The notes: a model not told the origin generated them from the sequence alone. Shown: positions 5,629 through 50,074, counted from the first letter of the stretch. The stretch is DNA of 64,000 nucleotides from Candidatus Eiseniibacteriota bacterium (GCA_963717505.1 OY970342.1:1-64000), one strand, 5' to 3'. Numbers and translations are program-made.

Positions 5629-6933
<1,305 letters not shown>

Positions 6934-6938
6934 CGGCC

Positions 6939-8317: not shown

Positions 8318-8373
8318 GCCGCCGCCCGCACGCACGCGCCGGCGACGACCACTCGTACGCCGCGCGCGAACGG

Positions 8374-9540: not shown

Positions 9541-9541
9541 C

Positions 9542-12569: not shown

Positions 12570-13850
12570 ATGGCGCGAATCATGATCCTAGGCGGGGGTT
12601 TCGGCGGCCTCTACACCGCGCGCTATCTCGAGCGGCGGCTGCCCCGCGACCAGCACGAAATCGTCCTGGTCTCGACAGAGAATTACATGCTGTATACGCC
12701 GCTGCTGCCCGAAGCCGCGGGTGGTGCACTGGAGCCGCGCCACGTCGTCGTGCCCCTGCGGACCGCACTGTCACGGACCCGCGTGGTCATCGGCGAGGTT
12801 CGGGACGTGAACCCGACGGGGCGCGCGATCGAGCTCGAGACGCAGGACGGCGGCCATCGAACGCTCTCCTACGATCACCTGGTCTTCGCGCTCGGCAGCT
12901 CGACGCGGATGCCGTCCACCGTCCCCGGCCTGCGCGATCGCGCGATCTCCTTCAAGACCCTGGCCGAAGCGATCTACCTACGCAACCGCGTGCTGCAGCA
13001 CCTCGAGCTGGCCGACGCGGCAGCAGACGACGAGGCGCGGCGCGCGCTGCTGAGCTTCGTCTTCGTCGGTGGAGGCTACGCCGGCGTCGAAGCGGGCGCG
13101 GAGCTGCACGCGATGGCACGAGAGGCGCTGCGCTTCTATCCCAGCCTCGACGCGGGCCGGCTGCGTTTCGTCGTGATCGAGGCCGGGCCCGGGATCATGC
13201 GCGACCTGGGCGAAGAGTTTGCGAAGCGGGTGGAACGCCGGCTGGTCGGAAAGGGCATCGAGATCCGCGTCGCCACTACGTTGCGCGAGGTTCACGACGA
13301 CGCAGTCGCCCTCAGCGACGGTGACATCCTGCCGACCAGGACGGTGGTGTGGACCGCCGGCGTGGCGGCACACCCTCTGGCGGCCCGGCTCGGGGCCGTG
13401 TGTGATGAGCGAGGGCGCGTGTTGTGTGAATCGGACCTACGCGTGCGCGGCCTGTCCGGAGTCTGGGCTCTGGGCGACAGCGCCGCCGTTCCGGACGCCA
13501 AGTCCGGTGGACTCCCCGCGCCCCCGACCGCGCAGCATGCGCTGCGTCAGGCGCGGGTGCTGGCGAGAAACCTGGCCGCAGCCCTGGTAGGCGGGCCGAC
13601 GGTGTCGTTCGCCTACGGCAATCTCGGGATGCTGGCTGGCCTGGGAAAGCGCGACGGCGCATGCCGGCTGCTCGGCATTCCGGTGAGCGGACTGCTCGCG
13701 TGGTGGATCGTGCGCACCTATCACCTGATCGCGCTGCCGACTCTGGCGCGAAAAGTCCGCGTGCTGATCGACTGGAACATCGCCCTGTTCTTCCCGCGAG
13801 ACATCGCTCAGTTGGGGAGCCTCGGCCAGGTGAAGCACGAGCGCCGATGA
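12570..13850 (+). CDS. ndh: Type II NADH:quinone oxidoreductase-like FAD-dependent oxidoreductase
   Basis: Two Rossmann motifs (GGGFGG and GGGYAGVE), plus YTPLLPE, WTAGV, ALGD and PPTAQHA. Confidence 0.82.
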   Translation: MARIMILGGGFGGLYTARYLERRLPRDQHEIVLVSTENYMLYTPLLPEAAGGALEPRHVVVPLRTALSRTRVVIGEVRDVNPTGRAIELETQDGGHRTLSYDHLVFALGSSTRMPSTVPGLRDRAISFKTLAEAIYLRNRVLQHLELADAAADDEARRALLSFVFVGGGYAGVEAGAELHAMAREALRFYPSLDAGRLRFVVIEAGPGIMRDLGEEFAKRVERRLVGKGIEIRVATTLREVHDDAVALSDGDILPTRTVVWTAGVAAHPLAARLGAVCDERGRVLCESDLRVRGLSGVWALGDSAAVPDAKSGGLPAPPTAQHALRQARVLARNLAAALVGGPTVSFAYGNLGMLAGLGKRDGACRLLGIPVSGLLAWWIVRTYHLIALPTLARKVRVLIDWNIALFFPRDIAQLGSLGQVKHERR

Positions 13851-13920
13851 TTGAGCGAGCGCGGGGTGGCTGCTAAGCTCTCGAGCCCTTCCCATGATCC
13901 CGCCTTCGAAACTGCCAACC

Positions 13921-14640
13921 ATGCGTGGACGTCTCGCCTGCTTCCTCCTGGTGGTGTCTCCCCTGTTGGCGCTCGCCGCCGGTTGCCGGGGCGAGAACGA
14001 TGCGCAAGAACTCAAGGCCGGCGGCAAGGCGTATCTGGCCCAGTGCGCCGTGTGCCACGGACCCCTGGGCCAGGGGGACGGCCCCCTGGCCGCCACCATC
14101 CGCGCAGAGGGCAAGACTCCTCCGGCGGTGCTCGATGCCGCGCGCGTCGGTTCACTCGGACGGAATGGTGTGCGAAAGGCAATCGAATCTGGGGTGCACG
14201 TGAGTGGAGGCACGGCCATGCCGGTCTGGGGACCTCACCTCGGCCGCGAATGGACGGATCGGGTCACGGACTACGTCGTCAGCATGCCGGACCTCGGTGA
14301 GGCCGGGCGCAACCTGGTCGCGAGCTATCTGGCGGATCCTCCGAACACACCGCCCTCGGGACGCCGTGCATACGTGCTCTACTGCTCGGGGTGCCACGGG
14401 CCGCAAGGCGGCGGTGATGGATTCTTCTCCGGAAGCGTCGCATCGCAACTCCACCCGGCACCGCTTCGGGGCGCATCCCTGTCCGGCCGCAGTGACGACG
14501 AACTGGCGGAGGTCGTCGGTATGGGGGGAGCGCACGCCCCCAACGCAACCACCATGCCGGGCTGGCTCCACACGATCTCTCCCGAGGACCGTCAGGCGCT
14601 GGTCGGCTACCTGCGCAGCCTTTCGGGATCGGTGGACTAG
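13921..14640 (+). CDS. Di-heme c-type cytochrome, probable lipoprotein
   Basis: Two CxxCH motifs (CAVCH, CSGCH), each followed by a distal MP motif. Signal peptide ends in LAAGC. Alternative start at 13894. Confidence 0.85.
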   Translation: MRGRLACFLLVVSPLLALAAGCRGENDAQELKAGGKAYLAQCAVCHGPLGQGDGPLAATIRAEGKTPPAVLDAARVGSLGRNGVRKAIESGVHVSGGTAMPVWGPHLGREWTDRVTDYVVSMPDLGEAGRNLVASYLADPPNTPPSGRRAYVLYCSGCHGPQGGGDGFFSGSVASQLHPAPLRGASLSGRSDDELAEVVGMGGAHAPNATTMPGWLHTISPEDRQALVGYLRSLSGSVD

Positions 14641-21572: not shown

Positions 21573-21649
21573 TGGCGGGGTTGACGGGACTCGAACCCGC
21601 GACCTCCTGCGTGACAGGCAGGCGTTCTAACCGACTGAACTACAACCCC
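21573..21649 (-). tRNA. tRNA-Asp (GTC)
   Basis: 77-nt sequence GGGGTTGTAGTTCAGTCGGTTAGAACGCCTGCCTGTCACGCAGGAGGTCGCGGGTTCGAGTCCCGTCAACCCCGCCA, with a 7-bp acceptor stem, GTC anticodon, TTCGA T-loop and encoded CCA. Confidence 0.97.
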
Positions 21650-34869: not shown

Positions 34870-35670
34870 CTAGGAAGCCGCGGTCTGAACCTCGGTCTCG
34901 GGTCTGGCGTCGGCGTATGCGGGTCCCACCTCGGTTCCCGGATCGAGCCCTTCGGCTTCGACCAGGCGCAGGTAGAAGAACGTCCACGCGTAAGCGATCA
35001 CCGGCAGCAGTGCCGCGATCAGCAGCTCAGTGGCGAGCGACCAGACTTTGAACCCGGGCCCCGGGACTGCGAGTGACAATGCCGCCCCGACCAGGGCGCA
35101 GCCGAGAACGAGCACCACCGAGACGAAGATCATCTCCAGCCAGCGTTCGAATCGTCCCTGCGTCAAACGGAAGGAGCGTTGAAACGCATTGGCCATCTGC
35201 GGCTCGTCGAGCACCACGGCTTCGGTAGCCACGGCGAGGCGGAATCCGAGAAAGAACCCGGGAAGGATCAGAAAGAGAAACCCGAAGACCAGAGCCAGGT
35301 TGCGCGCGATTTCCGTGATCAACAGCCACGGGACGCGCTTGAGCCCGCGGGCGTAGGACAGGGTCACGTCCTCGGGCGGAGTTCCGGGCAGAGAGTTGAA
35401 CACCGATCGCGCGCGAAATCGGAGCATGGCGCCGACCACCAGCCAGACGATGATGCTGCCGAGCTGGGCGACGGCCCAGGTTCCGGCGACCTCGGTCGAC
35501 CGTTCGGACTCGCGCCACTCCGGCAGCGCCGCGACCGCCAAGAGCCAGGGCGCCTGGACGATCAGGGGCACGACCAGCGAGTGCACCGGGTCGCGGCGCA
35601 CGGCCAGGTCGAACGCCAGCGCGAATGCGTGGCGCGTCGAAACGGGTAATTGGAATCGGTATGGGGGCAT
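34870..35670 (-). CDS. Integral membrane protein of unknown function
   Basis: About 5-6 hydrophobic helices and the LILPG...AFQRSFRLTQG pattern common in uncharacterised membrane families. Confidence 0.65.
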   Translation of the reverse strand: MPPYRFQLPVSTRHAFALAFDLAVRRDPVHSLVVPLIVQAPWLLAVAALPEWRESERSTEVAGTWAVAQLGSIIVWLVVGAMLRFRARSVFNSLPGTPPEDVTLSYARGLKRVPWLLITEIARNLALVFGFLFLILPGFFLGFRLAVATEAVVLDEPQMANAFQRSFRLTQGRFERWLEMIFVSVVLVLGCALVGAALSLAVPGPGFKVWSLATELLIAALLPVIAYAWTFFYLRLVEAEGLDPGTEVGPAYADARPETEVQTAAS

Positions 35671-35729
35671 CGTCCGGTGCGGGCGGCCGCACACTAGGTT
35701 CGAGTCTCCGGACGTGTCAAGATGCGCTC

Positions 35730-36212
35730 GTGGCCCGCAAGCTCTCGCACATCGACGCGCGCGGCCGCGTCCGAATGGTGGACGTGGGCGACAAGCGTAC
35801 CACCTCGCGCTCCGCCGTGGCCCGGGGCCGCGTGTTCATGCATCGCGACACGCTCGAGCGCGTGCGGGACGACCGCGTTCCCAAGGGCAACGTCCTCGCG
35901 ACCGCTCACCTGGCCGGCATCCTGGCCGCCAAGAAGACCAGCGAGCTGATCCCTCTCGCCCACCCGATCCCGATCGAAGGGATCGAGCTTTCGTTTCAGC
36001 CCGACGCCTCGTCGGCTTCGATCGGCATCGAGGCCGTGGTGCGGACCCGAGCGCGCACCGGGGTCGAGATGGAAGCCCTCGCGGCGGTGACGATCGCGGC
36101 ACTCACGCTCTACGACATGCTCAAAGCGGTGGACCGAGGCATGGTGATCGGCGAGATCGCGCTGTGGGAAAAGCGCGGGGGCCGGAGTGGCGTCTATCGT
36201 CGTCGCCCGTGA
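35730..36212 (+). CDS. moaC: Cyclic pyranopterin monophosphate synthase
   Basis: Motifs LSHID..G..RMVDV, AGILAAKKT.ELIPL.HP, TGVEMEAL and YDMLKAVD. Confidence 0.93.
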   Translation: MARKLSHIDARGRVRMVDVGDKRTTSRSAVARGRVFMHRDTLERVRDDRVPKGNVLATAHLAGILAAKKTSELIPLAHPIPIEGIELSFQPDASSASIGIEAVVRTRARTGVEMEALAAVTIAALTLYDMLKAVDRGMVIGEIALWEKRGGRSGVYRRRP

Positions 36213-37429
36213 ATCGCTGAGCTACGCCGAAGCGCGCGCGCGCGTGCTGGCTGCGGCGCGTCCGCTGCCGGCCGAACGCGTGCCGATCGAGAACGCGCGG
36301 GGTCGCGCCCTGCGCGAGACGCTTCGCGCGCCGCACGGGCTGCCGCCGTTCCGCAATTCCTCGATGGACGGCTTCGCCGTGCGCGCCGCCGATGTGACCG
36401 GCGCAACGACGCTCCCGATCGTCGACACGATCCCCGCCGGACGCCCGCCGTCCCGCGCGCTGCGGCCCGGCGAAGCGATGCGGATCATGACCGGCGCCAT
36501 GTTGCCCGAGGGCTCCGACGCCGTGGTGCCGGTCGAGGACACCTCCCTGCCGGGCGGCGATCGGGTCGAGTTCACGAAGTCGATCGCGGCCGGCGCGAAC
36601 ATCCGCGACGCCGACGTCGATCTGCCCGCGGGCGAGGTGGCACTTTCCGAGGGGCGCGAGCTGTCGGCTGCCGACCTCGGCCTGCTCGCGGCGTTGGGCG
36701 TGCCACAAGCGATGGTGGGGGCGCGCCCGCGCGTGACCATCCTCTCGACTGGAGACGAGCTGTTGAACGTCGACCAGCCGCTCAAACCCGGTGCGATCCG
36801 TGACAGCAACTCGATCCAGCTTCGCCTGCTGGTCGAGGAGGCCGGCGGGCGCATCGTTCATATGGCACGGCTCGCCGACGACGCGCGAGCCGTCCGGTCG
36901 TCGATTCTCGAGCATGCCGCGCGTTGTGACGTGCTGCTGACCATCGGCGGGGTGTCGATGGGCGAGTTCGACCCGGTGAAGCAGAGTCTCGGCGAACTGC
37001 GCGGCGTGGCGTGGTGGCGCGTCGCCATGAAGCCGGGACAACCGCAGGCCTTCGGACGACTCGGGGAGGCACTCTACTTCGGTCTGCCGGGGAACCCCGC
37101 GTCGGTGGCCTGCGTGTTCGAAGTGCTGGTGCGGCCGGCATTGCGGGCGTTGCAGGGTTTCTCGACGCTCGATCGGCCACAGCTGACCGTACGGAGCCGC
37201 GAGCGAATCGAGTCGCGCACGGGACGCACCGACTTCGTGCGCGTCGTTCTCGAATCGCGCGAGGGAACGTGGTGGGCCGCTCCCGCGGGCGCTCAAGTCT
37301 CCGGCCATCTGACGCCGCAGTCGCGCGCTCATGCGCTGATGATCGTCCCCGAATCAGCGGCCAGTCCTCGACGCGGGCGACTCGACGGACGCCATCCTGC
37401 TGCGCTGGCCCGACTCGCCAACGGCATGA
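36187..37429 (+). CDS. moeA: Molybdopterin molybdotransferase MoeA, with an apparent +1 frameshift near 37363
   Basis: Motifs SSMDGFAV, IMTGA, STGDEL, DSN, GGVSMG and MKPG.P...GLPGNP. The canonical C-terminus (VLDAGDSTDAILL...TGA at 37427-37429) lies in the +1 frame from 37364. Confidence 0.85.
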
Positions 37430-39180
37430 GGCTGCCGCGTGTCTTGATTCTGTGCGTGGCTGCAGCGTGCCTGGCGCTGACGGTGACCTTCCCGCTCACC
37501 GAGCCCGACTTCTGGCAGCACCTGGTGGTCGGCCGTGTGATCTGGGAAACGCATTCGGTGCCGCAGACGCAGATCTGGACGTGGCCCACCTGGGGGGCTC
37601 CCGACGTCAACCTCTCGTGGGGGTTTCGCGCCCTGGTCCATCCCTTCTGGGAACTCGGCGGCGTCACCGGTCTCTTCGCCTGGCGCTGGCTGACCACGCT
37701 CGGTGCATTTGCGCTGCTATGGCTCGCCGCGCGGCGGATGGGTGCGAGCGGCCTCACGGTCCCGGTGGCACTCGTGGTCTGTGGGCTTGCCTGGAGCAGC
37801 CGGTCGCAGATACGACCCGAGACCTGGGTCGCAGTGTTGATGGCGGTCGAGCTGTGGATCCTCGAGAGCCGGCGCCATGGCGGACCCGATCGCACCTGGG
37901 CGCTGCCGCTCGTGTTCTGGATCTGGATCAACAGCCACATCTCGTGGCACTTCGGCATCCTGATCCTCGCCGCCTACGGACTCGATGCGCTGCTGGCACG
38001 CGCCCGCTGGCCCTCGGATCGCGGATGGCCGCCGGTGCTCGCGCTCGCCGTCGCCGGAGTCGCGGGATTGGCGCTCGGCATGATCAATCCGTTCGGCTGG
38101 CGAGCGCTGTGGCAGCCATTCCACTTTCTGCTCCACGAACGAAGCGAGCCGATCTACGCGACGATCGGTGAGCTGGAACCCTTGCGCTGGTCGGAACACG
38201 TATGGGACGGCGTGCCGGTGATCGTGATCGTCTGGCCGTTGCTCGCGATCCTGCGCGCGCGCCGCCAGGGCTGGGATTGGGCCGAGGTCGCGATCGGGAT
38301 CGGTGCGATCACCGCGGCGCTGTCGACCGTTCGCTTCGTTGGATTCCTGGGAATCGTGGCCGCGCCGTTTCTGGCGCGCGACCTCGACTGGGCCGCTCGT
38401 TCGATCCGACTGCCGGCCGCACTCGGCTCACCATGGACGCGCGCGGCGCTGGCCGGCATCGTTTGCGTCCTGGTGGCGCTCCCGCTCTGGCGGCGGAACG
38501 GCATCGGGATCGCCGTCGACCACACGCAGATCCCGGAGCGCGCGTGTGACCGGATGGCCGAAATGGGCATTCGCGGCCGGAGTTTCAATCGCTTCCACCA
38601 CGGCGGCTATCTGTTATGGCGCTTCTACCCCGAGCGCGACCGGCTGCCGTTCATGGACATCCACCAGGCCGGCACGCCGGAACTCAGGCGGCTCTACATG
38701 TTCGCGTTCGAACGCGAGGAGTACTGGCGCGAGTTGGACCAGAAGTTCGACTTCGAGTGGATGGTTCTACCACGCCGCACGTACGAAGCGGACCGGTTGG
38801 TGGACGTGATCGACGCCGACACGTCGTGGGCGATGGTCTTCCTCGACGACGCGGCACTGGTGTTCGTCCGGCGACGCGGACCGATGGCGGCGGTCGCGGA
38901 TTCGTTCGCGTATCGAACCGCACCGGCGGGGAACGTGCGACTCCAAGCGTTGGCTCCGGTCGTGGCCGGCGACTCCACCGTGCGGGCAGCGTTTCGGGCG
39001 GACCTCGAGCGCCAAACCCGCGAGTCGCCGTTCAGCGCGCAGGCGCACGAGATGCTGGCGACCGTGGCGATGATGGACGGGCGGACCGCCGATGCGCGCA
39101 CTCATCTGGAACGCTCGCTGGCGATCGATCCGCGTGCACCCGAGGTTCGAGCCCGATTGGAAGCACTGTCGAGACAGTAG
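37426..39180 (+). CDS. Polytopic membrane protein, GT-C-like glycosyltransferase candidate, with a C-terminal TPR
   Basis: The ATG at 37426 overlaps the frame-corrected moeA TGA. DFWQHL..GR after TM1, RPE, WINSH, about 11 TM segments and a TPR-like ending. Confidence 0.6.
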   Translation: MRLPRVLILCVAAACLALTVTFPLTEPDFWQHLVVGRVIWETHSVPQTQIWTWPTWGAPDVNLSWGFRALVHPFWELGGVTGLFAWRWLTTLGAFALLWLAARRMGASGLTVPVALVVCGLAWSSRSQIRPETWVAVLMAVELWILESRRHGGPDRTWALPLVFWIWINSHISWHFGILILAAYGLDALLARARWPSDRGWPPVLALAVAGVAGLALGMINPFGWRALWQPFHFLLHERSEPIYATIGELEPLRWSEHVWDGVPVIVIVWPLLAILRARRQGWDWAEVAIGIGAITAALSTVRFVGFLGIVAAPFLARDLDWAARSIRLPAALGSPWTRAALAGIVCVLVALPLWRRNGIGIAVDHTQIPERACDRMAEMGIRGRSFNRFHHGGYLLWRFYPERDRLPFMDIHQAGTPELRRLYMFAFEREEYWRELDQKFDFEWMVLPRRTYEADRLVDVIDADTSWAMVFLDDAALVFVRRRGPMAAVADSFAYRTAPAGNVRLQALAPVVAGDSTVRAAFRADLERQTRESPFSAQAHEMLATVAMMDGRTADARTHLERSLAIDPRAPEVRARLEALSRQ

Positions 39181-39183
39181 CGC

Positions 39184-40647
39184 CTACATCATCCCCTGGA
39201 CTGACCGTCGCGCCTGCTCGAGCAGCGCGTGCGCCTGGATCCCCCACCAGATCGTGAGGGCCGCGGAGGCCAGGAGCGCGATGGTCGACGGCAGCGCGCG
39301 CGAGACCGAAACCGGCTCGGTGCGTGGCTCCTCCATGTACATCGCGACGGTGATGCGCAGGTAGTAGAACACGGATACCACGCTGTTGAGCACGCCGATC
39401 ACCACCAGCGGAACCATGCCGGCCTCGAGTGCCACCCCGAATACGTAGACCTTGCCCATGAATCCTGCGGTCGGCGGAATGCCGCCGAGCGAAACCATGA
39501 AGAGCGCCATGGCCGCTGCCAGAGCGGGGTGGCGATACCCCAGGCCAGCAAGGTCCGAGACCAGTACGCGTTCCTCGTTCTCGCGCCCGAGCAGCGTCAG
39601 GACGCCGAAGGCGCCGAGGTTCATGACCGAGTAGACCGCCAGGTAGAAGAGTGCGGCGGCCACGCCCTTCTCGCCGCCCGCGATCAACGCGACGATCACG
39701 TAGCCGGCATGCGCGATGCTCGAGTACGCCAGCATGCGCTTGACGTTGGTCTGGAAGAGCGCCGTGACGTTGCCGACCGTCATGGTCAGCACCGCGATCC
39801 AGGTCATCAACGTGCGCCAGTCGGCGCCGGTCGGCTCGAGCACCGCCAGACCGAAGCGCGCGAACGCGGCAAAGCCGGCCGCCTTGGCGCCGGCCGACAT
39901 GAACGCAGTCACCGAAGTCGGTGCCCCCTGATAGGCGTCGGGAGTCCACATGTGGAACGGGACCGCCGCGACCTTGAAGCCGAAGCCGATCAGCGTCAGC
40001 AGCGCCCCGGCCAGCAGCAGCGGGTTGTCGATCATCGGCGAGCCGGTGACGAACTGCGTCATCGCCATGAGGTTCGTGGTCCCGGTCGCTCCGTAGAGCA
40101 GCGCGATCCCGTAGAGCAGGAATCCGCTCGCGAACGCGCCCAGCAGGAAGTATTTCATCGAGGCCTCGCTCGACTCCAGGTGGCTCCGCTGGAAGCCGAC
40201 CAGCACGTAGAGCGCGAGCGACATCAACTCGAGCCCGAGGAAGATCGTGATCAGGTCGCTCGAGGCCGCCATGATCACCATGCCGAGGATTGCCGAGAGC
40301 ATGAGCGCGTAGTACTCGCCCAGATTGATGCGGGTGCGACGGATGTAGTCCCACGACAGGAGCACCGAGATCGCGCCGATGCCGCAGAAGAGCAGCGTCA
40401 TGAACGCGGTGATGCCGTCGTGCAGGAACATGCCCTCGAACAGGGCTCGCTTGGCATTGCCGACTCGAAACACGCAGGCGGCCGAGGCGGCGAGCGTGAA
40501 GAGCGACACCCAGGCGCCGCGCCCGCTGCGGGCACCCGCCGGCAGGAACTCGAGCAGCAGCAGCAGGCAGATGCCGGCGGACAGCGCGATCACCGGGCCG
40601 AGAGCCCACCAGTCGACCGCGAGGAGCGCGGGGGTCGCCGGGCTCAT
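39184..40647 (-). CDS. nuoN: NADH-quinone oxidoreductase subunit N
   Basis: Motifs LELMSL, EASMKYF, FKVAAVPFHMWTPDAYQGAPT and KRMLAYSSIAH. Confidence 0.95.
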   Translation of the reverse strand: MSPATPALLAVDWWALGPVIALSAGICLLLLLEFLPAGARSGRGAWVSLFTLAASAACVFRVGNAKRALFEGMFLHDGITAFMTLLFCGIGAISVLLSWDYIRRTRINLGEYYALMLSAILGMVIMAASSDLITIFLGLELMSLALYVLVGFQRSHLESSEASMKYFLLGAFASGFLLYGIALLYGATGTTNLMAMTQFVTGSPMIDNPLLLAGALLTLIGFGFKVAAVPFHMWTPDAYQGAPTSVTAFMSAGAKAAGFAAFARFGLAVLEPTGADWRTLMTWIAVLTMTVGNVTALFQTNVKRMLAYSSIAHAGYVIVALIAGGEKGVAAALFYLAVYSVMNLGAFGVLTLLGRENEERVLVSDLAGLGYRHPALAAAMALFMVSLGGIPPTAGFMGKVYVFGVALEAGMVPLVVIGVLNSVVSVFYYLRITVAMYMEEPRTEPVSVSRALPSTIALLASAALTIWWGIQAHALLEQARRSVQGMM

Positions 40648-42287
40648 CGTTCGCTCCCGGTCGCGGGCGGCGTCGGCGCCGGGTGGCTGCCGGAACCCGC
40701 TTGGCCCTGAGGGACGATGCGAACCCGCACCGGAAGTCGCCGGGCGTCATGTGTGTTCAGGCCCGTGCCCCACGACGCGACGTTGCCGGTCACGGCCTCG
40801 TAGCGCTCGGCGGCGACCGCCAGGGTCCGATCGAGAGCCGGTTGCATGCGATCGAGGAACGGCTGCGGGAACACGCCGATCCAGAAGATCAGGAGCAGCA
40901 GGGGTGCAAACACCAGCCGTTCGCGGAAGGTGAGGTCCGAGAGGTTGGCGTTCTCCGCGTGCGTCACTGGACCGAACATCACGCGCTGGAACATCCACAG
41001 CATGTAGCACGCCGAAAGGATCACGCCGGTCGCGGCCATCGCCGCCCACCACACGTTCGTCTTGAACGCCCCGAGCAGCACCAGGAACTCGCCGACGAAG
41101 CCGTTGGTGCCCGGGAGACCGATCGACGACAGGGTGACGATCAGGAACACGGAGGCGAATACCGGGAGTGGTTTCCACAGACCACCGAAGTCCGCAATCA
41201 GGCGCGTGTGCCGGCGCTCGTAGATCACCCCAACCAGGAGGAACAGCGCTCCCGTCGAGATGCCGTGGTTGATCATCTGCAGCATGGCCCCCGCGAGTCC
41301 CTGCGGGTTCATCGCGTAGAGCCCGAGCATGCAGAAGCCCAAGTGGCTGACCGACGAATAGGCGACCAGCTTCTTCAGGTCCGGCTGAACCAGGGCGACC
41401 AGCGCGCCATAGACGATGCCGAAGATCGCCAGCCCGGCGATCCACGGCGCGAACTGTTCCGACGCCACGGGGAACAGCGGAATCCCGTAGCGCACGAATC
41501 CGAAGGTGCCCATCTTGAGCAGGATCGCCGCCAGGATCACCGAGCCCGCGGTCGGCGCCTCGACGTGCGCGTCGGGCAGCCAGGTGTGGAACGGGAACAT
41601 CGGCACCTTGATCGCGAATGCGACCGCGAACGCCAGGAACAGAAGCACTTGCGCCTCGGCCGGAATTTGGAGCTGGTAATAGGCGTTCAGGTCGAAAGTC
41701 GCGACCCCGGTCACCGAGCGGTTGTAGAAGTAGAGCCAGAGCAACGCCACCAGCATGAGCACGCTGCCCGCCATGGTGTAGAGGAAGAACTTGATCGCGG
41801 CGTAGATCCGGCGTGGCCCGCCCCAGATCCCGATCAGCAGGTACATCGGAATCAGCATGGCCTCCCAGAACACGTAGAACAGCAGCAGATCGAGCGCCAT
41901 GAACGTGCCGAGCATGCCGGTCTCGAGCGCCAGCAACAGGGCGTAGAACTCGCGCTCGCGCGTCTGGATCGCCGGCGACGAGGCGATCACGGCGAGCGCG
42001 GTCATGAACGTCGTGAGCAGAATGAGGAGGACGGAGACGCCGTCGACCCCCAGGTGGTAGCTGGCGCCCAGCGCCGGCAGCCAGTCGAGGCGTTCGATGA
42101 ACTGAAAATCCGGGCCGAAGGGGATGAAGCGCCACCAGAGCGGCAGCGAGAACCCGAACTCGGCCACCGCCACCGCAATCGCCCAGCGGCGGATCAGGCG
42201 GCCGGCGCTCGCCGGCATCAGAGCGATCAAGGCCGCGCCGATCAGCGGGAAGAAGATGAGCCACGTCATCCAGGGGAAGAGCGCCAC
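40644..42287 (-). CDS. nuoM: NADH-quinone oxidoreductase subunit M
   Basis: Motifs FYVFWE, KFFLYT, KVPMFPFHTWLPDAHVEAPT, LKMG and AYSSVSH. Confidence 0.95.
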   Translation of the reverse strand: MALFPWMTWLIFFPLIGAALIALMPASAGRLIRRWAIAVAVAEFGFSLPLWWRFIPFGPDFQFIERLDWLPALGASYHLGVDGVSVLLILLTTFMTALAVIASSPAIQTREREFYALLLALETGMLGTFMALDLLLFYVFWEAMLIPMYLLIGIWGGPRRIYAAIKFFLYTMAGSVLMLVALLWLYFYNRSVTGVATFDLNAYYQLQIPAEAQVLLFLAFAVAFAIKVPMFPFHTWLPDAHVEAPTAGSVILAAILLKMGTFGFVRYGIPLFPVASEQFAPWIAGLAIFGIVYGALVALVQPDLKKLVAYSSVSHLGFCMLGLYAMNPQGLAGAMLQMINHGISTGALFLLVGVIYERRHTRLIADFGGLWKPLPVFASVFLIVTLSSIGLPGTNGFVGEFLVLLGAFKTNVWWAAMAATGVILSACYMLWMFQRVMFGPVTHAENANLSDLTFRERLVFAPLLLLIFWIGVFPQPFLDRMQPALDRTLAVAAERYEAVTGNVASWGTGLNTHDARRLPVRVRIVPQGQAGSGSHPAPTPPATGSER

Positions 42288-42288
42288 G

Positions 42289-44211
42289 TCACATCCTCAG
42301 GACGACCCACAACAGGGCCGCCACGCCAACGGTGAACAGCAGGGCATAGGTGCCGACGAAACCGGTCTGGAACAGGCGCAGCACCGCCGACACGCCCTCG
42401 AACGTGTATCCGACACCGTTGACGATTCCATCCACGATCTTCTCGTCCCAGAAGCGCCAGAGCGCGACACTCGCGCCGTGGATCGGGCGCACGACGATCG
42501 CGTCGTACAGCTCGTCCACCCGATACTTGTTGAGCAGCAGGTCGTGAACACGCGGGAAGCGCTCGCGCAGCCGGGTCGCGGCCTCGGGCCGCCGCAGGTA
42601 GTAGCGGAACGCGGCCCAAATGCCGAGGCTCGCGACGCCGACCGAGAGCAGCATCAGCGTCCACTCGACGTTACGCGGGACCTCGTGCGCGGCATGGCCG
42701 TTGTCGTGCGCGCCGTGCTCGAACACTGGCGCCAGCCAGCGCGCGAACGGATTCCCACCCTCGATCATCGGCGGTCCGATCCAGCCCCCGACGATCGAGA
42801 GCAGCGCCAACACCACCAGCGGCACGATCATGCTCGGCGGTGACTCGTGTACGTGGTGCGCGGCCTCGTGCGACAACCGCGACGGGCCGCGGAACGCGAG
42901 CACGTAGAGGCGGAACATGTAGAACGCCGTCAGGCCCGCGCCGGCCAGCCCGGCCAGCCAGATCGCGCGATGCCCCGAGGCAAATGCGCCGTGCAGGATC
43001 TCGTCCTTGCTGAAGAACCCGGCCAGCGGCGGAATGCCGGCGATCGCGATGGTACCGATCAGCATGGTGGCGTGGGTCCAGGGCAGCTTGCCCGCGAGCC
43101 CACCCATTTTGCGCAGATCCTGCTCGCCGTGGAGGCCGTGAATCACCGAGCCGGCCCCGAGGAACAGCAGCGCTTTGAAGAACGCGTGGGTCATCAGATG
43201 GAAGATGGCGGCGGTGAAGGCGCCGACGCCGCACGCCATGAACATGTAGCCGAGCTGGCTGACCGTGGAGTACGCGAGCACGCGTTTGATGTCGTTCTGG
43301 GCCAGGCCGATGGTTGCTGCGAACAGCGCGGTGGCGGTGCCGATGATCGCCACGGTCTCGAGGGCCGCCGGCGCCAGCGTGAACAGCACGTTGCAGCGCG
43401 CGACCATGTAGACGCCGGCCGTGACCATGGTCGCCGCATGGATCAGTGCCGAAACCGGAGTCGGACCCTCCATGGCGTCGGGCAGCCAGGTGTAGAGCGG
43501 AATTTGAGCGCTCTTGCCGGTGGCGCCGAGGAACAGCAGCAGCGTCGCCGTCGTGATCGCCAGCGAGCCGACGACGAACACGTGTGGCGCGACCGCGAAC
43601 AGCCGCTCGTAGTTCAGGCTGCCGCCGAGCGTCAGCAGAGTCAGCACGCCGAGCAGGAACCCGAAGTCGCCGATCCGGTTGACGATGAACGCCTTCTTCC
43701 CCGCTTCGGCGGCCGAGGGCCGCTCGTACCAGAACCCGATCAGCAGGTACGAGCAGAGCCCGACTCCCTCCCAACCCACGAACATCAGCAGGAAGTTGTC
43801 CGCGAGCACCAGCGTCAGCATCGCGAACATGAAGAGGTTCAGGTACATGAAGAAGCGGCGGAACGAGGGGTCGTTCGACATGTAGCCGACCGAATAGGCG
43901 TGGATCAGGAAGCCCACGCCGGTGACCACCAGCACCATCACCGCCGACAACGGATCGAGCAGGAACGCGACATCGGCCGAGAAGTCGCCGACCCGCATCC
44001 AGGTGTAGACCATCTCGTGGATCGCCCTGCCGTCCGCCGGCAGGCCCGCGAGGTGGACCACCGCACGCACCGCGAGCAGGAACGCGACACCGACGGCGCC
44101 ACACGCCAGCCAGGCCGTGCCGCGCTTGCCGAGCCGGTCGCCGAGCAACAGGTTCAGGGCCACGGCCGCAAGCGGCAGGGCCGGAATCAGCGCGATCATC
44201 GGCAGGTTCAC
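42289..44211 (-). CDS. nuoL: NADH-quinone oxidoreductase subunit L
   Basis: Motifs GWEGVG, NRIGD, KSAQIPL..WLPDAMEGPTPVSALIHAATMV and THAFFKALLFL. Confidence 0.95.
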   Translation of the reverse strand: MNLPMIALIPALPLAAVALNLLLGDRLGKRGTAWLACGAVGVAFLLAVRAVVHLAGLPADGRAIHEMVYTWMRVGDFSADVAFLLDPLSAVMVLVVTGVGFLIHAYSVGYMSNDPSFRRFFMYLNLFMFAMLTLVLADNFLLMFVGWEGVGLCSYLLIGFWYERPSAAEAGKKAFIVNRIGDFGFLLGVLTLLTLGGSLNYERLFAVAPHVFVVGSLAITTATLLLFLGATGKSAQIPLYTWLPDAMEGPTPVSALIHAATMVTAGVYMVARCNVLFTLAPAALETVAIIGTATALFAATIGLAQNDIKRVLAYSTVSQLGYMFMACGVGAFTAAIFHLMTHAFFKALLFLGAGSVIHGLHGEQDLRKMGGLAGKLPWTHATMLIGTIAIAGIPPLAGFFSKDEILHGAFASGHRAIWLAGLAGAGLTAFYMFRLYVLAFRGPSRLSHEAAHHVHESPPSMIVPLVVLALLSIVGGWIGPPMIEGGNPFARWLAPVFEHGAHDNGHAAHEVPRNVEWTLMLLSVGVASLGIWAAFRYYLRRPEAATRLRERFPRVHDLLLNKYRVDELYDAIVVRPIHGASVALWRFWDEKIVDGIVNGVGYTFEGVSAVLRLFQTGFVGTYALLFTVGVAALLWVVLRM

Positions 44212-44215
44212 GTCG

Positions 44216-44518
44216 TCAGCCCTTGAGCAGGTTGATTTCGTCCGTGAACACGGACTCGCGAAGTCGGAAAAGGTTCACGATGATCGCCAGCCCCACGGCG
44301 ACCTCGGCCGCGGCCACCGTCATGACGAAGAACACGAAGATCTGTCCGTCGAGCGAGTTCATGTGGCGGGCGAAGGCGACGAACGCGAGGTTCGCGGCGT
44401 TGAGCATCAGCTCGATGCTCATGAAGATGATGAGCGCGTTCCGGCGGACGAGCACGCCGACCACGCCAATCGTGAACAGGACGGCGGAGAGCAGCAGCGT
44501 CCAGCTGAGCGGGATCAC
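44216..44518 (-). CDS. nuoK: NADH-quinone oxidoreductase subunit K
   Basis: Motifs [15 protein letters not shown] and [16 protein letters not shown] overlap with the nuoJ stop. Confidence 0.94.
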
Positions 44519-45222
44519 GCGGAAGCCTCGTTTTGGAATCGCTCGTCGGGGCTCGCTCGGTGGATGGCCGGAGGGTCGACCGTGGCTTCTGCGCCGACAC
44601 TTGCGGCCGGCCGATCCACCGCGTGGGCCGCCGCCGCCGGCTCGAGCTGGGGCGTCGTCACCCGCACCGGCAGCGGCTCGAGCACCGGCCGTGCCGCGCG
44701 CTTCACCTTCACCGGATCGGGGGCTCTTCGGCTCCGAGAGATCACAATCGCGCCGACCATCGCCACCAGCAGGACCATCGAGGTGATTTCGAACGGGAAC
44801 AGGTAGCGCGTGTAGAGCACCTTGCCGATCGCCTGGGTGTTGCCCACCGTCTGCGGAACGACCGGCGCCACCGGCCCCGGCGCCCATCCCCGGCTCATGA
44901 AGAGCACGCCTTCGGCGAGCAGGACGGCGCCCGCGATCCATCCGATGCCGCGGCGGAGCGCGATCTGCACGCCGGACTCGACGTCGTGCTTCAGGTTCAG
45001 GTACATGATGACGAACAGGAACAACACCATGATTGCGCCGGCGTAGACGATGACCTGCACCATCCCGAGGAACTCGGCGTGGAGCAACAGGTAGATCCCG
45101 GCGAGCGAACAGAATGCCGTCACCAGGAACAGCGCGCTGGTCACCGGGTTCCGGTGCACGACGACCAACAGGCTCGACACCACGAGCACTGCGGCGAACG
45201 CGACGAACAGGGCCGGGGTCAT
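44515..45222 (-). CDS. nuoJ: NADH-quinone oxidoreductase subunit J with an extended C-terminal tail
   Basis: Motifs [29 protein letters not shown] and [13 protein letters not shown] overlap with the nuoH stop. Confidence 0.93.
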
Positions 45223-46223
45223 CGGTTGTTCATCCAGTAGACCGCGAACCCGGTCACCATCACGTTGGCGAGCGACAGCGGCAGCAGGATCTTCCAGCCC
45301 AGGTTCATGAGCTGGTCGTAACGCAGCCGCGGGAAGGTCCAGCGCACCCAGATGAAGAAGAAGATCAACAGGGCGAGCTTGGCGAAGAACCAGAGGAACT
45401 TGAGGCTGTCGGGCAGCCACGGTCCGTTCCAGCCGCCGAGGAACAGCGTCACCGCGATCGCGGAGATCGTGATGACGTTCATGAACTCGCCCAGGAAGAA
45501 CAGGCCGAACTTCATGCTCGAGTACTCGGTGTGGAACCCGGCGACCAGCTCGGCCTCGGCCTCGGGCAGGTCGAACGGAGCACGATTGGTCTCGGCCAGT
45601 GCCGTGATCATGAAGATCGCGAACGCCAGGGGCTGGACCACCACGAACGGCAACCGCTCCTGAGCGTGGACGATGTCGACCAGCGACAGCGACCCGGCGA
45701 GCAGCAGCACACCGATGGTCGAGATCCCCATCGCCAGCTCGTAGGAAATCATCTGCGCCGACGAGCGCAGCCCACCGAGCAACGCGTACTTGCTGTTCGA
45801 CGACCACCCGGCGAGCGTCAGAGAGTAGACCCCGAGGCTCGACATCGCGAGGAACAGTAGGAGACCGACGTTGATGTCGGTGACGATGAAGTTGGGCCCC
45901 ACCGGAATCACTGCGAACGACACCAGCGCCGGGATCACCGCGAGCATCGGCGCGATGTGGAAGATCACGCGGTTGCCGCCGGGCGGAATGAACTCCTCCT
46001 TGAACAGGAGCTTCACCACGTCGGCCCAGGGCTGGAGGATGCCGGCCGGCCCGACCCGGTTGGGGCCCGGGCGGCCCTGCATGCGACCCGCGACCTTGCG
46101 CTCGAGCAGAATCATGTAGGACACGACCACCAGCATGCCGTTCAGGATCACGAAGATCTTGAGGAACGCCCAGAAGACGAGCTGGAAGTCCGGATGCCGG
46201 TAGAGCGCGATCAGCGATTCCAT
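45219..46223 (-). CDS. nuoH: NADH-quinone oxidoreductase subunit H
   Basis: Motifs ERKV...[41 protein letters not shown] and PRLRYDQLM. Confidence 0.95.
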
Positions 46224-46227
46224 CGGG

Positions 46228-46584
46228 TCAGTCTTCCCACTGGAGGGCGCGCTTCTTCAGAAGGTAGAGATAGCCGACCAGCAGGATCAGGATGAACAGC
46301 GTCATCTCGATCAAGCCATAGAGCCCGATCTGGCGAAACGCCACCGCCCACGGGTACATGAACACGGCTTCGATGTCGAAGAGGATGAACAACACCGCGA
46401 CCAGGTAGAACTTGATCGGGAACCGATTGCGGGCGGTGCCGACCGGCTCGACGCCGCACTCGTAGGGCGACAGCTTGCGCGCGTTCATGCGCCGGGGCAT
46501 GACGATGTACGACGCACCGAGCGTGGTGGCCGCGAACAAGATCGCGACCACGATGAACATCAGGACCGGGATGTACTCTCGCAT
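46228..46584 (-). CDS. nuoA: NADH-quinone oxidoreductase subunit A
   Basis: Motifs PYECG and FYLVAVLFILFDIEAVFMYPWA. Confidence 0.94.
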   Translation of the reverse strand: MREYIPVLMFIVVAILFAATTLGASYIVMPRRMNARKLSPYECGVEPVGTARNRFPIKFYLVAVLFILFDIEAVFMYPWAVAFRQIGLYGLIEMTLFILILLVGYLYLLKKRALQWED

Positions 46585-46620
46585 CGAGCGTTCCTGTCGG
46601 CGCCCGCGAGCGGGCGGCTC

Positions 46621-47595
46621 CTAGACGTGCTGCGCGTTGAGCTTCTTGACCGCTTCGGTGAGTGCCGGAATCACTTCGAACAGATCGCCGACCAACCCGT
46701 AGTCCGCGACTTTGAAGATCGGGGCGTCGGCGTCCTTGTTGATGGCCACGATACAGCGCGACGACGACATGCCCGCCAGGTGCTGGATGGCACCCGAGAT
46801 CCCGACCGCGACATAGAGCTTGGGCGACACCGTCTTACCCGTCTGGCCGACCTGATCCGAGTGCGGCCGCCAGCCGGCGTCGACCACGGCGCGCGACGCC
46901 CCGACCGTGGCGCCGAGCGCCGCCGCAAGGTCCTCGAGGATCTTGAAATTCTCGGGGCCCTTGAGCCCGCGCCCACCCGACACGATGATCTCCGACTCGG
47001 TGAGATCGAGCTTGCCGCCGGCAGCGGCCGCGATACGCACCACTTTTGCGCGCGAGGATCCGGGATCGTGGTTCGCCGCCACGGTCTCGACGGTGGCCGG
47101 AGCGCCTCCCGGCGCCGGCGCGAATACCTTGGGCCTCAGCGTCGCCATCGCCGGCGACTTGGTGAACGCCAGTTTCTGGTTGGCCTTGCCCGCGTACACC
47201 GGACGGCGCGCGACCAGCTTGCCGCCGTCGACGATCAATGCGGTGCAGTCCGACGCGAGGCCGACGCCAAGCCGCGCCGCCACTCGCGGCGCCAGATCCT
47301 TGCCCATCGAAGATGCCGAGAACAGCACGACCTGCGGCTTCATCGCCTCGACCGCCGCGACCACGGCGCGCGTGTAGCCGTAGGCGTCGTAGCGCGCGAA
47401 GCTATCGTGGGTGACAACCCGCACTCGATCGGCGCCGTACTCGCCGAGCGCGGCGGCACCGGGGTCGGAGGCGCACGGCAGCACGGCGACCACGTCGCCG
47501 AACGTGACCTTGAGCCGCTTGGCCTCGCCCAGAACCTCATGCGTGACCGAGCGGATTCGCCCGTCGCGCTGTTCGGCGACCACGAGGATGCTCAC
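46621..47595 (-). CDS. etfA: Electron transfer flavoprotein alpha subunit
   Basis: Motifs [32 protein letters not shown] and AINKD. The GTG start overlaps the etfB stop. Confidence 0.95.
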
Positions 47596-48341
47596 AGGAC
47601 CTTGGCCTCCTCGCGCAACACTCGGAGCAGTTCGGGAATGGCGTCGGTGCCTTGGCCGACGATGCGCCCGGCCGAACGCGCGGCCGGCATTTCGAGCGCC
47701 AGGATCTCGAGCCCCGCGGTTCCGAGCTGGGCCGGCTTCTCGTCGATCGGCTTCTTCTTGGCCGCCATGATGCCCTTGAGCGAAGCGTAGCGCGGCTCGT
47801 TGAGCCCCTTGTCGGTGGTGAATGCCGCCGGCAACGTGACCTCGATCACCTCGCGCCCCCCCTCGATGTCGCGCTCGACCGTGGCCCTGTCGCCGTCGAG
47901 CTGAAACGTCGCCACCGAGGTCGCGCACGGCAGGTCGAGCAGCTCGGCGACCATCGGGCCGACCTGCGAGGCGTCGTCGTCGACCGCCTGACGGCCGAAC
48001 CAGAGGATCGTGGCCCCGAGCGTTTTGAGCTCGGTCGCGAGCGCATTCGCGACCGCGAGCGGATCGTTCGCGCCATCGGCTTTCAGGTGGATCGCGCGGT
48101 CGGCGCCCATGGCGAGCGCGTTTCGCAGAGTGGCCGTGGCACCGGCGCCGCCGAGCGAGACCACGACGACTTCACCGGCGCCCTGCGCCTCTTTGAGCTT
48201 CAGGGCCTGCTCGATCGCGAACTCGTCGTAGGGATTGAGGATCCAGGTGACGCCGGCCGGGTCGAGCGAACGTCCGTCGGCGCCGACTTTGACGCGTGTC
48301 TCGGTGTCGGCCACCTGCTTGATGCAGACCGCCTGGATCAC
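47592..48341 (-). CDS. etfB: Electron transfer flavoprotein beta subunit
   Basis: Motifs CIKQV, NPYDEFAIE, ALAMGAD, GRQAVD and NEPRYASL.GIM.AKKK. Confidence 0.95.
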   Translation of the reverse strand: MIQAVCIKQVADTETRVKVGADGRSLDPAGVTWILNPYDEFAIEQALKLKEAQGAGEVVVVSLGGAGATATLRNALAMGADRAIHLKADGANDPLAVANALATELKTLGATILWFGRQAVDDDASQVGPMVAELLDLPCATSVATFQLDGDRATVERDIEGGREVIEVTLPAAFTTDKGLNEPRYASLKGIMAAKKKPIDEKPAQLGTAGLEILALEMPAARSAGRIVGQGTDAIPELLRVLREEAKVL

Positions 48342-48476
48342 GGACGAACTCCCCGGAGCGCAGGCCCGCGAAACCCCCGCGGCGGCTCTTCGTTCATGCG
48401 TTCACAAGGTGGATCGGCCCCACGGCGCGCCATCGACCGGAGCCCGGAAGTCACTGCAAATGAAAGGCGACCCGGC

Positions 48477-48505
48477 AGTTTCGGGGGAAGGGGCGGATGT
48501 GTCAA
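48477..48505 (-). promoter_or_regulatory. Putative sigma70 promoter for the etfBA-nuo unit
   Basis: Minus strand TTGACA (48505-48500), 17-nt spacer, then GAAACT as an imperfect -10. Confidence 0.4.
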
Positions 48506-48554
48506 GCCGCGGTGATCGCCGCGTCGAAACGTCGAAGGAAGACCAAGAGGTGCT

Positions 48555-48794
48555 TCACGTCCGTTGGCTTCCCTTCCGCGCCCGACGCCGGCGAACACCA
48601 GCTCCCTTGGCGCGGACCTTTGATTGACTCCGGCGTGGCGCGACTCCGGCCTTGAAAGACGCGATCAGACTCGCCAGCTTGGCAGGGATCGGCCGGCAGT
48701 CACAGTGCTTCTGATGGTCCAGATGCCACGTGACCCGCTGCTCCAACGTGGGATTCTTTGGCATCACGTGCCCGCGGTGCCATTCCTTGTTCAT
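48555..48794 (-). CDS. Small His/Cys-rich hypothetical protein with a basic tail (79 aa)
   Basis: GAGG RBS and an ATGA overlap with the lysA stop. Sequence MNKEWHRGHVMPKNPTLEQRVTWHLDHQKHCDCRPIP. Confidence 0.6.
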   Translation of the reverse strand: MNKEWHRGHVMPKNPTLEQRVTWHLDHQKHCDCRPIPAKLASLIASFKAGVAPRRSQSKVRAKGAGVRRRRARKGSQRT

Positions 48795-50074
48795 GGGATC
48801 CTCAACTCCTCGGCAGTGTGTCGTTCGACCAGTCCTCGCACCGACTCCGCTTCGCGCGCCAGGGTAAGCGCCCCTCCACGCACCACCACCTCCGCGAGTC
48901 TCCCCCGCCCGTTGTAGTTGGATGCCATCGCGGCGCCATAGGCGCCCGTGTCCAGGAACGCGACCCAATCGCCGCGTTCGAGCGGCGGCAGCGCGACTTC
49001 GCCATCGAACACATCGGCGCTCTCGCACACCGGGCCGACGACCGCGGCAGACTCCGCGGCACCCTGCCGCGGCGCCACCGGCACGATCCGGTGCCGTGCA
49101 CCGTAGAGCGCCGGGCGAATGAAATCGTTCATCCCCGCGCCGACCACGACGAAACGCCTTCCGTTTCGCTTCTTGATCCACAACACCTCGGTGACGACGA
49201 TGCCGATGGTCGCCACCATCCAACGTCCCGGCTCGAAAACCCATTCGAGGTCCTTTGCCTCGGCCATCGCTCGCGCTGCGTTCCGTGCGGCATGGGACTC
49301 CAATGGAAACTCGCTGGCGCCCGTGTAGTCCACGCCAAAACCACCGCCCAGGTTCACGAAGCCCAGGGGCCCGCCGCGCGACGTCGCCTCGCGACGAACC
49401 TCGAGCACGAAGTCCAGCGCTCGCTCGAGCGCCGAGGGATCCACGAGCTGCGAGCCGACGTGTACGTGGATTCCGTCCACGCGCAGGTGGGGCCAACGCT
49501 GTCGCGCCGCCCATGCGTCGAGCGCCTCGGCCGCCGTGATGCCGAACTTGGCTTCGTCGTGTCCGGTCGCGACGTAGTGGTGCCCCGGCGTCTCGATTCC
49601 GGGGTTCACGCGCAGCGCGACGCGCAACGGAGCGCCGCCCGCGGCGGCGGCCGCCTCGTTCAAGAGATCCAGCTCGCCGACATGGTCGGCATTCACCGAA
49701 TGAATGTGTCGCGTGGCCGCCCAGCGCGCCTCCTCGGAAGTGCGGCCGTTGCCGTTCAGGATCACTTGGCCGGGCGCGAAGCCTGCCGCCGCGGTCATTT
49801 CCAACTCGCCCAACGACCCGGCGTCCGCGCCCAGGCCGGCCTCGCGGACGCACTCGAGGATCGCCGGCAGTCCGTTGGCTTTGGTGGCATACGCGATCGT
49901 CGGATCGAGGCCGGTGAATGCCGAGCGAAAACGGCGGGCGCGCGCGCCGAGCGCATCCAGGTCGTAGAGGTAGAACGCATGAACGTCGGGATCGCGCCGG
50001 CGCAAGGCTGCGATCGCGTTTGCGACCGACACGCCGCCGTGAAGGATCCCGGATGGTGTGTGGGCGGTGGTCAT
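48791..50074 (-). CDS. lysA: Diaminopimelate decarboxylase
   Basis: PLP lysine YATKAN, plus LRVNP, KFG, HVHVGSQ, GGG, EPGR, CESAD and MASNYN. Confidence 0.9.
   Translation of the reverse strand: MTTAHTPSGILHGGVSVANAIAALRRRDPDVHAFYLYDLDALGARARRFRSAFTGLDPTIAYATKANGLPAILECVREAGLGADAGSLGELEMTAAAGFAPGQVILNGNGRTSEEARWAATRHIHSVNADHVGELDLLNEAAAAAGGAPLRVALRVNPGIETPGHHYVATGHDEAKFGITAAEALDAWAARQRWPHLRVDGIHVHVGSQLVDPSALERALDFVLEVRREATSRGGPLGFVNLGGGFGVDYTGASEFPLESHAARNAARAMAEAKDLEWVFEPGRWMVATIGIVVTEVLWIKKRNGRRFVVVGAGMNDFIRPALYGARHRIVPVAPRQGAAESAAVVGPVCESADVFDGEVALPPLERGDWVAFLDTGAYGAAMASNYNGRGRLAEVVVRGGALTLAREAESVRGLVERHTAEELRIP

Follow-up and report, generated by a model that had tools for sequence, protein, structure and literature searches.

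Complex I in its canonical form, represented by Nuo of Escherichia coli and Nqo of Thermus thermophilus, comprises 14 subunits, and partial nuo clusters without NuoEFG that use other electron donors are described for Campylobacter, cyanobacterial NDH-1 and Desulfurivibrio (PMC4453560, PMC12142623). The marine actinomycetes Salinispora, Streptomyces sp. SM17/SM18 and Kocuria flava carry, beside a complete operon, an extra copy composed of nuoA, a hypothetical open reading frame (ORF) and nuoH-J-K-L-M-N, for which a role as proton pump is proposed speculatively (PMC6676996). The locus considered here lies in a 64,000-nucleotide stretch of DNA from Candidatus Eiseniibacteriota bacterium (GCA_963717505.1 OY970342.1:1-64000), hereafter the window, where the electron transfer flavoprotein (ETF) genes etfB and etfA precede the genes of the complex I membrane arm only. 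By parsimony, this locus appears to be a derived form of a full operon, from which the six genes nuoB-G (~7 kb) have been cleanly removed. The explanation favoured here, with moderate confidence, is that the membrane arm is functional and supplied in trans by peripheral-arm genes encoded elsewhere.

Nine contiguous genes, all intact, occupy the minus strand of this locus in the order etfB-etfA-nuoA-nuoH-nuoJ-nuoK-nuoL-nuoM-nuoN, as called by ORF listing, translation and Pfam searches of the window, which has a GC content of ~67%. The gene for the ETF beta (small) subunit, etfB (47592..48341; 249 aa; PF01012, 141 bits), is followed by that for the alpha (large) subunit, etfA (46621..47595; 324 aa; PF01012 and PF00766), whose GTG start codon overlaps the etfB stop as GTGA. 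A spacer of 36 bp (46585..46620), which folds at -16.3 kcal/mol and contains a short GC hairpin with neither a T-run nor a promoter-like element, separates etfA from nuoA (46228..46584; 118 aa; PF00507, 130 bits), and only 4 bp (CCCG; 46224..46227) lie between the nuoA stop and the ATG of nuoH (45219..46223; 334 aa; PF00146, 434 bits). Downstream follow nuoJ (44515..45222; 235 aa; PF00499), which encodes a low-complexity C-terminal tail of ~70 aa, nuoK (44216..44518; 100 aa; PF00420), nuoL (42289..44211; 640 aa; PF00361, PF00662 and PF01010), nuoM (40644..42287; 547 aa; PF00361) and, as the last gene of the operon, nuoN (39184..40647; 487 aa; PF00361). Most of these genes have overlapping stop and start codons, with 4-nt overlaps at the H/J, J/K and M/N boundaries. 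Outside the system, moaC and a moeA-containing ORF (Pfam MoaC and MoeA; 35625..39180, plus strand) converge on nuoN and serve as a synteny anchor, the stop of the latter ORF lying 3 nt from that of nuoN. Nine contiguous, strongly scoring genes on one strand are beyond chance, and the gene order, the 36-bp and 4-bp gaps and the missing subunits reported in the initial annotation are all borne out by the ORFs, the Pfam matches and the sequence itself.

The seven membrane subunits (A, H, J, K, L, M and N) are all of complex I type according to Pfam. Moreover, most of them exceed the cut-offs of the corresponding NCBIfam or TIGR models, namely NuoH (NF004741; 377.6 bits, cut-off 305), NuoJ (NF005164; 163.6 bits, cut-off 154), NuoK (NF004320; 125.6 bits, cut-off 57), NuoL (NF005141; 786 bits, cut-off 556), NuoM (TIGR01972; 641 bits, cut-off 264) and NuoN (TIGR01770; 450 bits, cut-off 333). 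NuoA is the one membrane subunit that does not pass, at 127.9 bits against a cut-off of 155 in the best NCBIfam model, and it is 66-76% identical to the NuoA proteins of full-operon relatives. The best solved structure for NuoH is that of E. coli NuoH (7NYH_H, 320 bits). An identity as Mrp/Mnh cation:proton antiporter was rejected, since Mrp models remain far under their cut-offs (e.g., 328 versus 937 bits) while the NuoL, NuoM and NuoN models pass, and it is also opposed by the complex I type of NuoH, NuoA, NuoJ and NuoK; likewise, the membrane-arm proteins do not reach the NCBIfam cut-offs of Fpo and hydrogenase models. The YECG motif of NuoA and the acidic loop of NuoH, which had been pointed out previously, were found again, with no difference from the full-operon relatives in either the YECGVEPVG loop or the acidic loop. 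These loops line the quinone site and contact the Q-module in published structures of complex I, and the retention of such docking motifs supports a continued use of the membrane arm.

The peripheral arm, in turn, is missing from the whole window. None of the 52 ORFs scanned belongs to the NuoB, C, D, E, F, G or I families according to Pfam (8 of the 52 have no family at all), and tblastn of NuoB-G and NuoI, taken from the relatives' loci L008 and L010, respectively, against the whole window reached a best E value of 0.027, which is noise. The search for decayed remnants of nuoB-G or nuoI also returned only noise at E values up to 10. The Q-module (NuoB, C, D and I) and the N-module (NuoE, F and G) are both absent within these 64 kb, a range in which the proposal of seven membrane genes present and seven peripheral genes missing holds by Pfam and tblastn alike.

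Relatives of the locus were collected by a NuoH scan of species-representative genomes, of which the best 80 of 586 relatives' loci were kept, and the nine proteins of the window, the Pfam-verified NuoB-G of L008 and the NuoI of L010 were mapped onto all of them. The closest relatives, with NuoH 61-79% identical, comprise contigs of Candidatus Eisenbacteria, two that carry no phylum label (L006 and L009) and one labelled Limnocylindria (L001). As far as the contigs reach, the order etfB-etfA-nuoA-B-C-D-E-F-G-H-J-K-L-M-N is found in L001, L002, L003, L004, L005, L008 and L012, the L004 contig beginning inside etfA and continuing with nuoA-B-C-D-E-F-G-H; L006 and L009 start within nuoF or nuoG, after which H-J-K-L-M-N follow. 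In L008, the proteins NuoB, C, D, E, F and G fill positions 3076-9993 according to Pfam. Among the 48 loci holding both nuoA and nuoH, the two genes are adjacent in none, the smallest distance being 1032 bp, and BCDEFG lie between them in 43. Of the 25 loci that extend 2.2 kb or more upstream of nuoA, 7 carry the etfB-etfA pair. All seven are Eisenbacteria-type loci, to which etf genes are confined among those compared, and in six of them (L001, L002, L003, L005, L008 and L012) nuoA-B-C-D-E-F-G-H follows. Downstream of nuoN, a convergent moaC/moeA pair is shared by the window, L008 and L005. Thus, with etfBA upstream and moaC/moeA downstream, the locus of the window sits at the chromosomal place of the relatives' full operon.

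Two features that could seem peculiar to the window acquire a different meaning in this comparison. The adjacency of etfBA and nuo genes, for which recurrence in relatives had been put forward as a check of an ETF-fed pump, is indeed conserved, but together with complete nuoB-G, so it gives no sign of such a pump. Since the adjacency coexists with the full set of peripheral genes, it predates their loss and, therefore, is no specific indication of an electron supply from ETF to the membrane arm. The absence of nuoI between nuoH and nuoJ is also real but not special to the window, given that it is shared by 31 of the 64 loci holding both genes, with H-J distances of 0-159 bp. These 31 loci comprise all nine Eisenbacteria-type loci with both genes (L002-L009 and L012), L018 and 21 Blastocatellia-type loci (e.g., L020, L028, L031 and L035). 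Moreover, no NuoI match was found within 10 kb in Eisenbacteria-type loci, and, judging from this gene content, nuoI must be encoded elsewhere in the Eisenbacteria-type and Blastocatellia-type groups. Hence, the etf adjacency and the lack of nuoI between H and J are lineage traits that exist alongside a normal NADH-oxidising module.

Some additional observations concern the relatives themselves. L001 is labelled Candidatus Limnocylindria (Chloroflexota) and L018 Acidobacteriota, and the operons of both group inside the Eisenbacteria-type clade, a mismatch between label and operon type that suggests mis-binned contigs or gene transfer. In four Chloroflexota loci (L010:46-2246, L011:1-2198, L014:1-2145 and L032:26-2010), a second NuoC-NuoD-NuoI-like cluster lies directly upstream of a complete nuoA-N operon.

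The junction between nuoA and nuoH was compared with the corresponding region of the relatives. In the relatives, ~50-190 bp separate the nuoA stop from the nuoB start and 6-34 bp separate the nuoG stop from the nuoH start, while ~7 kb (nuoB-G) lie where the window has the nuoA stop, CCCG and the nuoH ATG. Such a sequence would result from a deletion that began just after the nuoA stop and ended just past the nuoG stop. That the loss is derived is argued from parsimony only, as the core clade and other phyla carry B-G. In a tree of concatenated NuoH, J, K, L, M and N, the window falls inside a core clade of 11 sequences with a support of 100/100, and its neighbours by maximum likelihood (ML) are L001, L008 and L003, in a weakly supported grouping (79/99). 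Its end branch measures 0.18, versus 0.15-0.20 for L001, L003 and L008. A first approximately unbiased (AU) test (p = 5e-11) was discarded as evidence of nesting, since it was driven by the pairing of L018 with L002. In L003 and L008, the sequence TGGGA occurs, by eye, near the ends of both nuoA and nuoG, a pattern missing from L001, L004, L005 and L012, and it is too short to be weighed as microhomology in a deletion mechanism.

Regarding constraint, the window carries private changes at 73 of 2916 sites (2.5%) that are invariant in all other core sequences, whereas the same measure ranges from 1.7 to 2.0% in L002, L003, L005, L008 and L012; synonymous sites are saturated at the ~78% protein identity of these comparisons. 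These private changes amount to 13 in EtfA and 8 in EtfB, 5 in NuoA (1-3 in the other sequences), 8 in NuoH (1-10), 5 in NuoL (3-18) and 8 in NuoM (2-8). Since the excess affects the ETF genes to the same degree, it is not specific to nuo, and the membrane genes show, on these counts and branch lengths, no acceleration of rate and no specific relaxation of constraint.

Partial nuo sets are also present at other loci of the group. In L007, the earliest-branching Eisenbacteria-type locus, etfB-etfA and two unrelated genes precede nuoA-E-F-H-J-K (L007:7775-12026), with only nuoE and nuoF between A and H, and L018:8232-14684 holds nuoA-C-E-H-J-K-L-M without etf genes. Both sets are compact, with ORFs open over nearly their full length, and L018 pairs with L002 (support 100/100), its branch being long (0.76). 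NuoE and NuoF without NuoG (L007), as well as NuoC and NuoE without B, D and F (L018), offer no electron path alone, and the fact that such sets are kept implies that their partners would be encoded elsewhere. Moreover, ~7.4 kb of useless membrane genes would be expected to be short-lived, and, thus, intact partial operons in three lineages argue for function.

With respect to expression, a promoter-like element, TTGACA-N17-GAAACTG (48476..48505, minus strand), lies 164 nt upstream of the etfB start, its putative function resting on pattern conservation. The pattern TTGAC-N17-19-GAnACTG is found upstream of etfB in six of eight sequences (window, L002, L003, L005, L008 and L012), which are its only matches on both strands of 401 kb. 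Closer to the gene, 66 nt upstream of the etfB start, a conserved TTGTGAA box (48384..48407, minus strand) occupies the leader. This box recurs 54-81 nt upstream of etfB in seven of eight sequences (window, L001, L002, L003, L005, L008 and L012), with eight matches in 401 kb, is often followed by GGCGCAAAG and may be a regulator site, either an operator or a leader element. Rfam identified no family at the box or elsewhere in the locus, and the tRNA and Rfam scans of the window returned one tRNA-Asp only (21573-21649). A second promoter-like element, TTGAC-N16-19-TAGG, occupies the etfA-nuoA gap (81-102 bp) of L004, L005, L008 and L012, where etf and nuo may, therefore, be separable units, and is missing where this gap is short, namely in the window (36 bp), L001 (37 bp) and L002 (10 bp). 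Since no such nuoA-proximal element is present in the window, its nuo genes probably depend on the etf promoter, i.e., the membrane-arm genes are probably transcribed from the predicted promoter upstream of etfB. A generic sigma-70 promoter scan of positions 38500-49500 reported no promoter-like site and did not flag the conserved etfB element, and terminator-like sites in the same interval numbered 7 versus 4.9 expected, none of them in the etfA-nuoA gap or after nuoN.

The type of ETF encoded by the operon is also relevant to the interpretation of the locus. EtfB finds its best structures among canonical ETFs, namely 1EFP_B of Paracoccus (167 bits) and 1EFV_B of human (161 bits), versus at most 125 bits for bifurcating structures (CarD 125), and its LNEPRYASL segment aligns with the partner-recognition segment of canonical ETFs, although the segment GRQAVDDDASQVGP partly resembles the bifurcating GRQAIDGDTAQVGP. 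On the contrary, EtfA is closest to CarE (6FAH_A, 259 bits), and bifurcating structures score from 259 to 212 bits versus 197 for human ETF alpha. EtfA aligns from CarE residue 71 and lacks the first 70 residues of CarE, which we take to be a ferredoxin domain, so that the protein presumably has no N-terminal ferredoxin domain. Overall, the ETF leans towards the canonical type, with EtfB in favour and the EtfA scores pointing to bifurcation. Canonical ETFs such as the nearest matches of EtfB use ETF-QO. None of ETF-QO, fixCX, bcd, carC or ldh is adjacent to etfBA, whose neighbours are lysA and nuo. Literature searches found no description of an etf-nuo operon linkage or of Eisenbacteria complex I.

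Taken together, these data can be arranged in a model in which the ancestral Eisenbacteria-type operon would have been etfB-etfA-nuoA-B-C-D-E-F-G-H-J-K-L-M-N, with nuoI always elsewhere, and nuoB-G would have been lost by a precise deletion that begins at the nuoA stop and ends just short of the nuoH start. The seven membrane-arm genes would have stayed intact and tightly coupled, probably being read from the promoter-like element before etfB, and the membrane arm would assemble with a Q-module, and perhaps an N-module, from another genomic place, the product being a split complex I of the ordinary kind or an enzyme with 11 subunits. The ETF genes would be inherited neighbours under shared regulation, and ETF most likely would send electrons to quinone by its own route rather than via the membrane arm. 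Supply in trans is favoured for the window mainly because of the analogy with L007 and L018, and it is further supported by the fact that unlinked subunit genes are normal in this group, as seen for nuoI. Consequently, regarding the two readings offered by the initial annotation, input-module genes located elsewhere stay the most likely one, while an ETF-fed pump is not indicated by the conserved adjacency.

Several points weigh against this explanation. The 64 kb surveyed contain no peripheral-arm gene, and the partners in trans are assumed. Moreover, the junction looks like a plain deletion, by which genes are lost rather than relocated, and supply in trans would thus require a second copy present beforehand. 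The tree is no proof of nesting among the full-operon relatives, as the AU test did not reject a position of the window as sister to all other core sequences (p = 0.45). The private changes of NuoA are at the high end of the range, and two substitutions, H47R and A50G, affect the first loop of NuoH. Finally, neither the intactness of the genes nor their normal rate would count as evidence in the case of a very recent deletion.

This last point leads to an alternative in which complex I was lost recently, i.e., nuoB-G were deleted, respiration proceeds through other dehydrogenases and the membrane genes are an undecayed relic read through from the etf promoter. The junction fits such a loss, being what a simple deletion between the stops of nuoA and nuoG would leave, neither peripheral genes nor remnants exist in the 64 kb, and the slightly higher rate of private changes, together with the weak possibility of TGGGA microhomology seen by eye in L003 and L008, points in the same direction. 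However, the seven genes are open, full-length and strongly scoring, the end branch equals those of the sisters, the ETF genes share the slight excess of private changes and the tight coupling has been kept (4-bp gap, overlapping stops and starts). Furthermore, intact partial sets persist in the group (L007, and L018 on a long branch), and a relic state should be short-lived and, hence, rarely seen. A recent loss is, thus, considered unlikely. An error of assembly or binning is highly improbable, whether as a false join of nuoA to nuoH or as a minority deletion variant in a full-operon population. The close relatives are all metagenome-assembled genomes, the window may be one too and labels in the group are unreliable, as illustrated by L001 and L018. 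Nevertheless, the join falls exactly at gene boundaries (intact stop, 4-bp spacer, intact ATG), no repeat long enough to collapse an assembly is seen in the junctions of the relatives and both flanks are syntenic with them. A minority deletion variant, if real, would in any case be biological rather than an error.

The remaining alternative assigns a new use to the membrane arm without a canonical peripheral arm, with ETF or another unlinked redox module acting on NuoH/NuoA or with the arm working as a stand-alone ion or proton translocator. In its favour, co-transcription with etfBA is probable, as the nuoA-proximal promoter-like element of L004, L005, L008 and L012 is missing here; yet L001 and L002 are also without that promoter and retain B-G. 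Likewise, the literature describes the membrane-arm-only cluster of Salinispora, Streptomyces and Kocuria as a proposed proton pump (PMC6676996) and the recruitment of other donors by partial complex I operons (PMC4453560). On the other hand, the etfBA adjacency coexists with NuoE, F and G in the relatives and is, therefore, no adaptation to their loss, the loops of NuoH and NuoA facing the Q-module are unchanged, and EtfB is nearest to canonical ETFs, which use ETF-QO, and keeps a segment like theirs (LNEPRYASL). No experimental precedent for ETF docking on complex I was found in literature searches either, and a new use of the arm is decidedly unlikely. Its boldest version, in which no canonical peripheral arm exists at all and a functional stand-alone NuoAHJKLMN under the etf promoter would be fed by a non-canonical partner, with ETF as the obvious candidate on account of its operon linkage throughout the lineage, or would translocate ions independently of redox reactions, is very doubtful; a weaker form of this version would regard the conserved Eisenbacteria etfBA-nuo operon as a direct route from ETF to complex I that replaces ETF-QO.

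Other genes of the window deserve a brief mention. Just upstream of the etf promoter region, an ORF of 79 aa (48555-48794, minus strand) overlaps the stop of a lysA-like decarboxylase gene by 4 nt. Its product has a His/Cys-rich N-terminal half and a basic tail and has no NCBIfam match, and a longer ORF in the same frame has no Pfam match. On the other flank of the operon, a single ORF of 997 aa (36187-39180, plus strand) comprises MoeA (residues 1-393) running in frame into a membrane-protein-like region of ~600 aa. In L008, MoeA is a separate ORF of 421 aa followed by a TPR protein, and the C-terminal part of the window's ORF has no match there; the 997-aa ORF is either a fusion or the result of a lost stop. 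Farther away (12570-14640, plus strand), a pyridine nucleotide-disulphide oxidoreductase (Pyr_redox_2; 12570-13850) precedes a cytochrome c protein in which two domain matches are of cytochrome c type (cbb3 subunit III-like). The former could be an NDH-2 or a sulfide:quinone reductase; no curated NCBIfam model was passed, and an alternative NADH dehydrogenase is not claimed.

The locus has several implications. The genome of the window and its full-operon relatives constitute a natural deletion experiment on whether a membrane arm deprived of its own peripheral genes is retained and by what means it would be supplied. Together with L007 and L018, the locus suggests that nuo genes are routinely dispersed or shared between sets in this little-studied group, a point of relevance to metabolic reconstructions in which complex I counts as present only if its 14 genes are all found side by side. 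The known diversity of complex I operons is also extended, in a small and checkable way, by the conserved linkage of etfBA and nuo and by the unlinked nuoI of the Eisenbacteria-type and Blastocatellia-type loci. If the peripheral genes were absent genome-wide, the locus would be a strong clue that the membrane arm has acquired a new input or function.

Compared with the canonical complex I of E. coli and T. thermophilus, all seven membrane subunits are of the same type, and in the relatives the locus retains the usual gene order with 13 of the 14 genes; the differences reside in the absence of nuoB-G, the absence of nuoI between H and J, as in the relatives, and the etfBA genes in front. With known ETF systems, either linked to ETF-QO or bifurcating (EtfAB/FixABCX), the locus shares an EtfB/EtfA pair with the usual domains. 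The 11-subunit enzymes keep nuoB, C, D and I beside the membrane genes, unlike this cluster, and if only nuoBCDI exist elsewhere in the genome, the enzyme would be of that kind. The partial operon of marine actinomycetes comes closest in gene content, with the same seven genes in the same order and no peripheral-arm gene. However, in that operon nuoA and nuoH flank a hypothetical ORF and etf genes are missing, whereas here a 4-bp gap separates the two nuo genes and etfBA lies in front. Moreover, the actinomycete set is described as an extra copy, while the set of the window occupies the place of the relatives' full operon. Thus, the locus has the gene content of the actinomycete partial operon but appears to have arisen by deletion at the main nuo locus of its lineage, behind etfBA.

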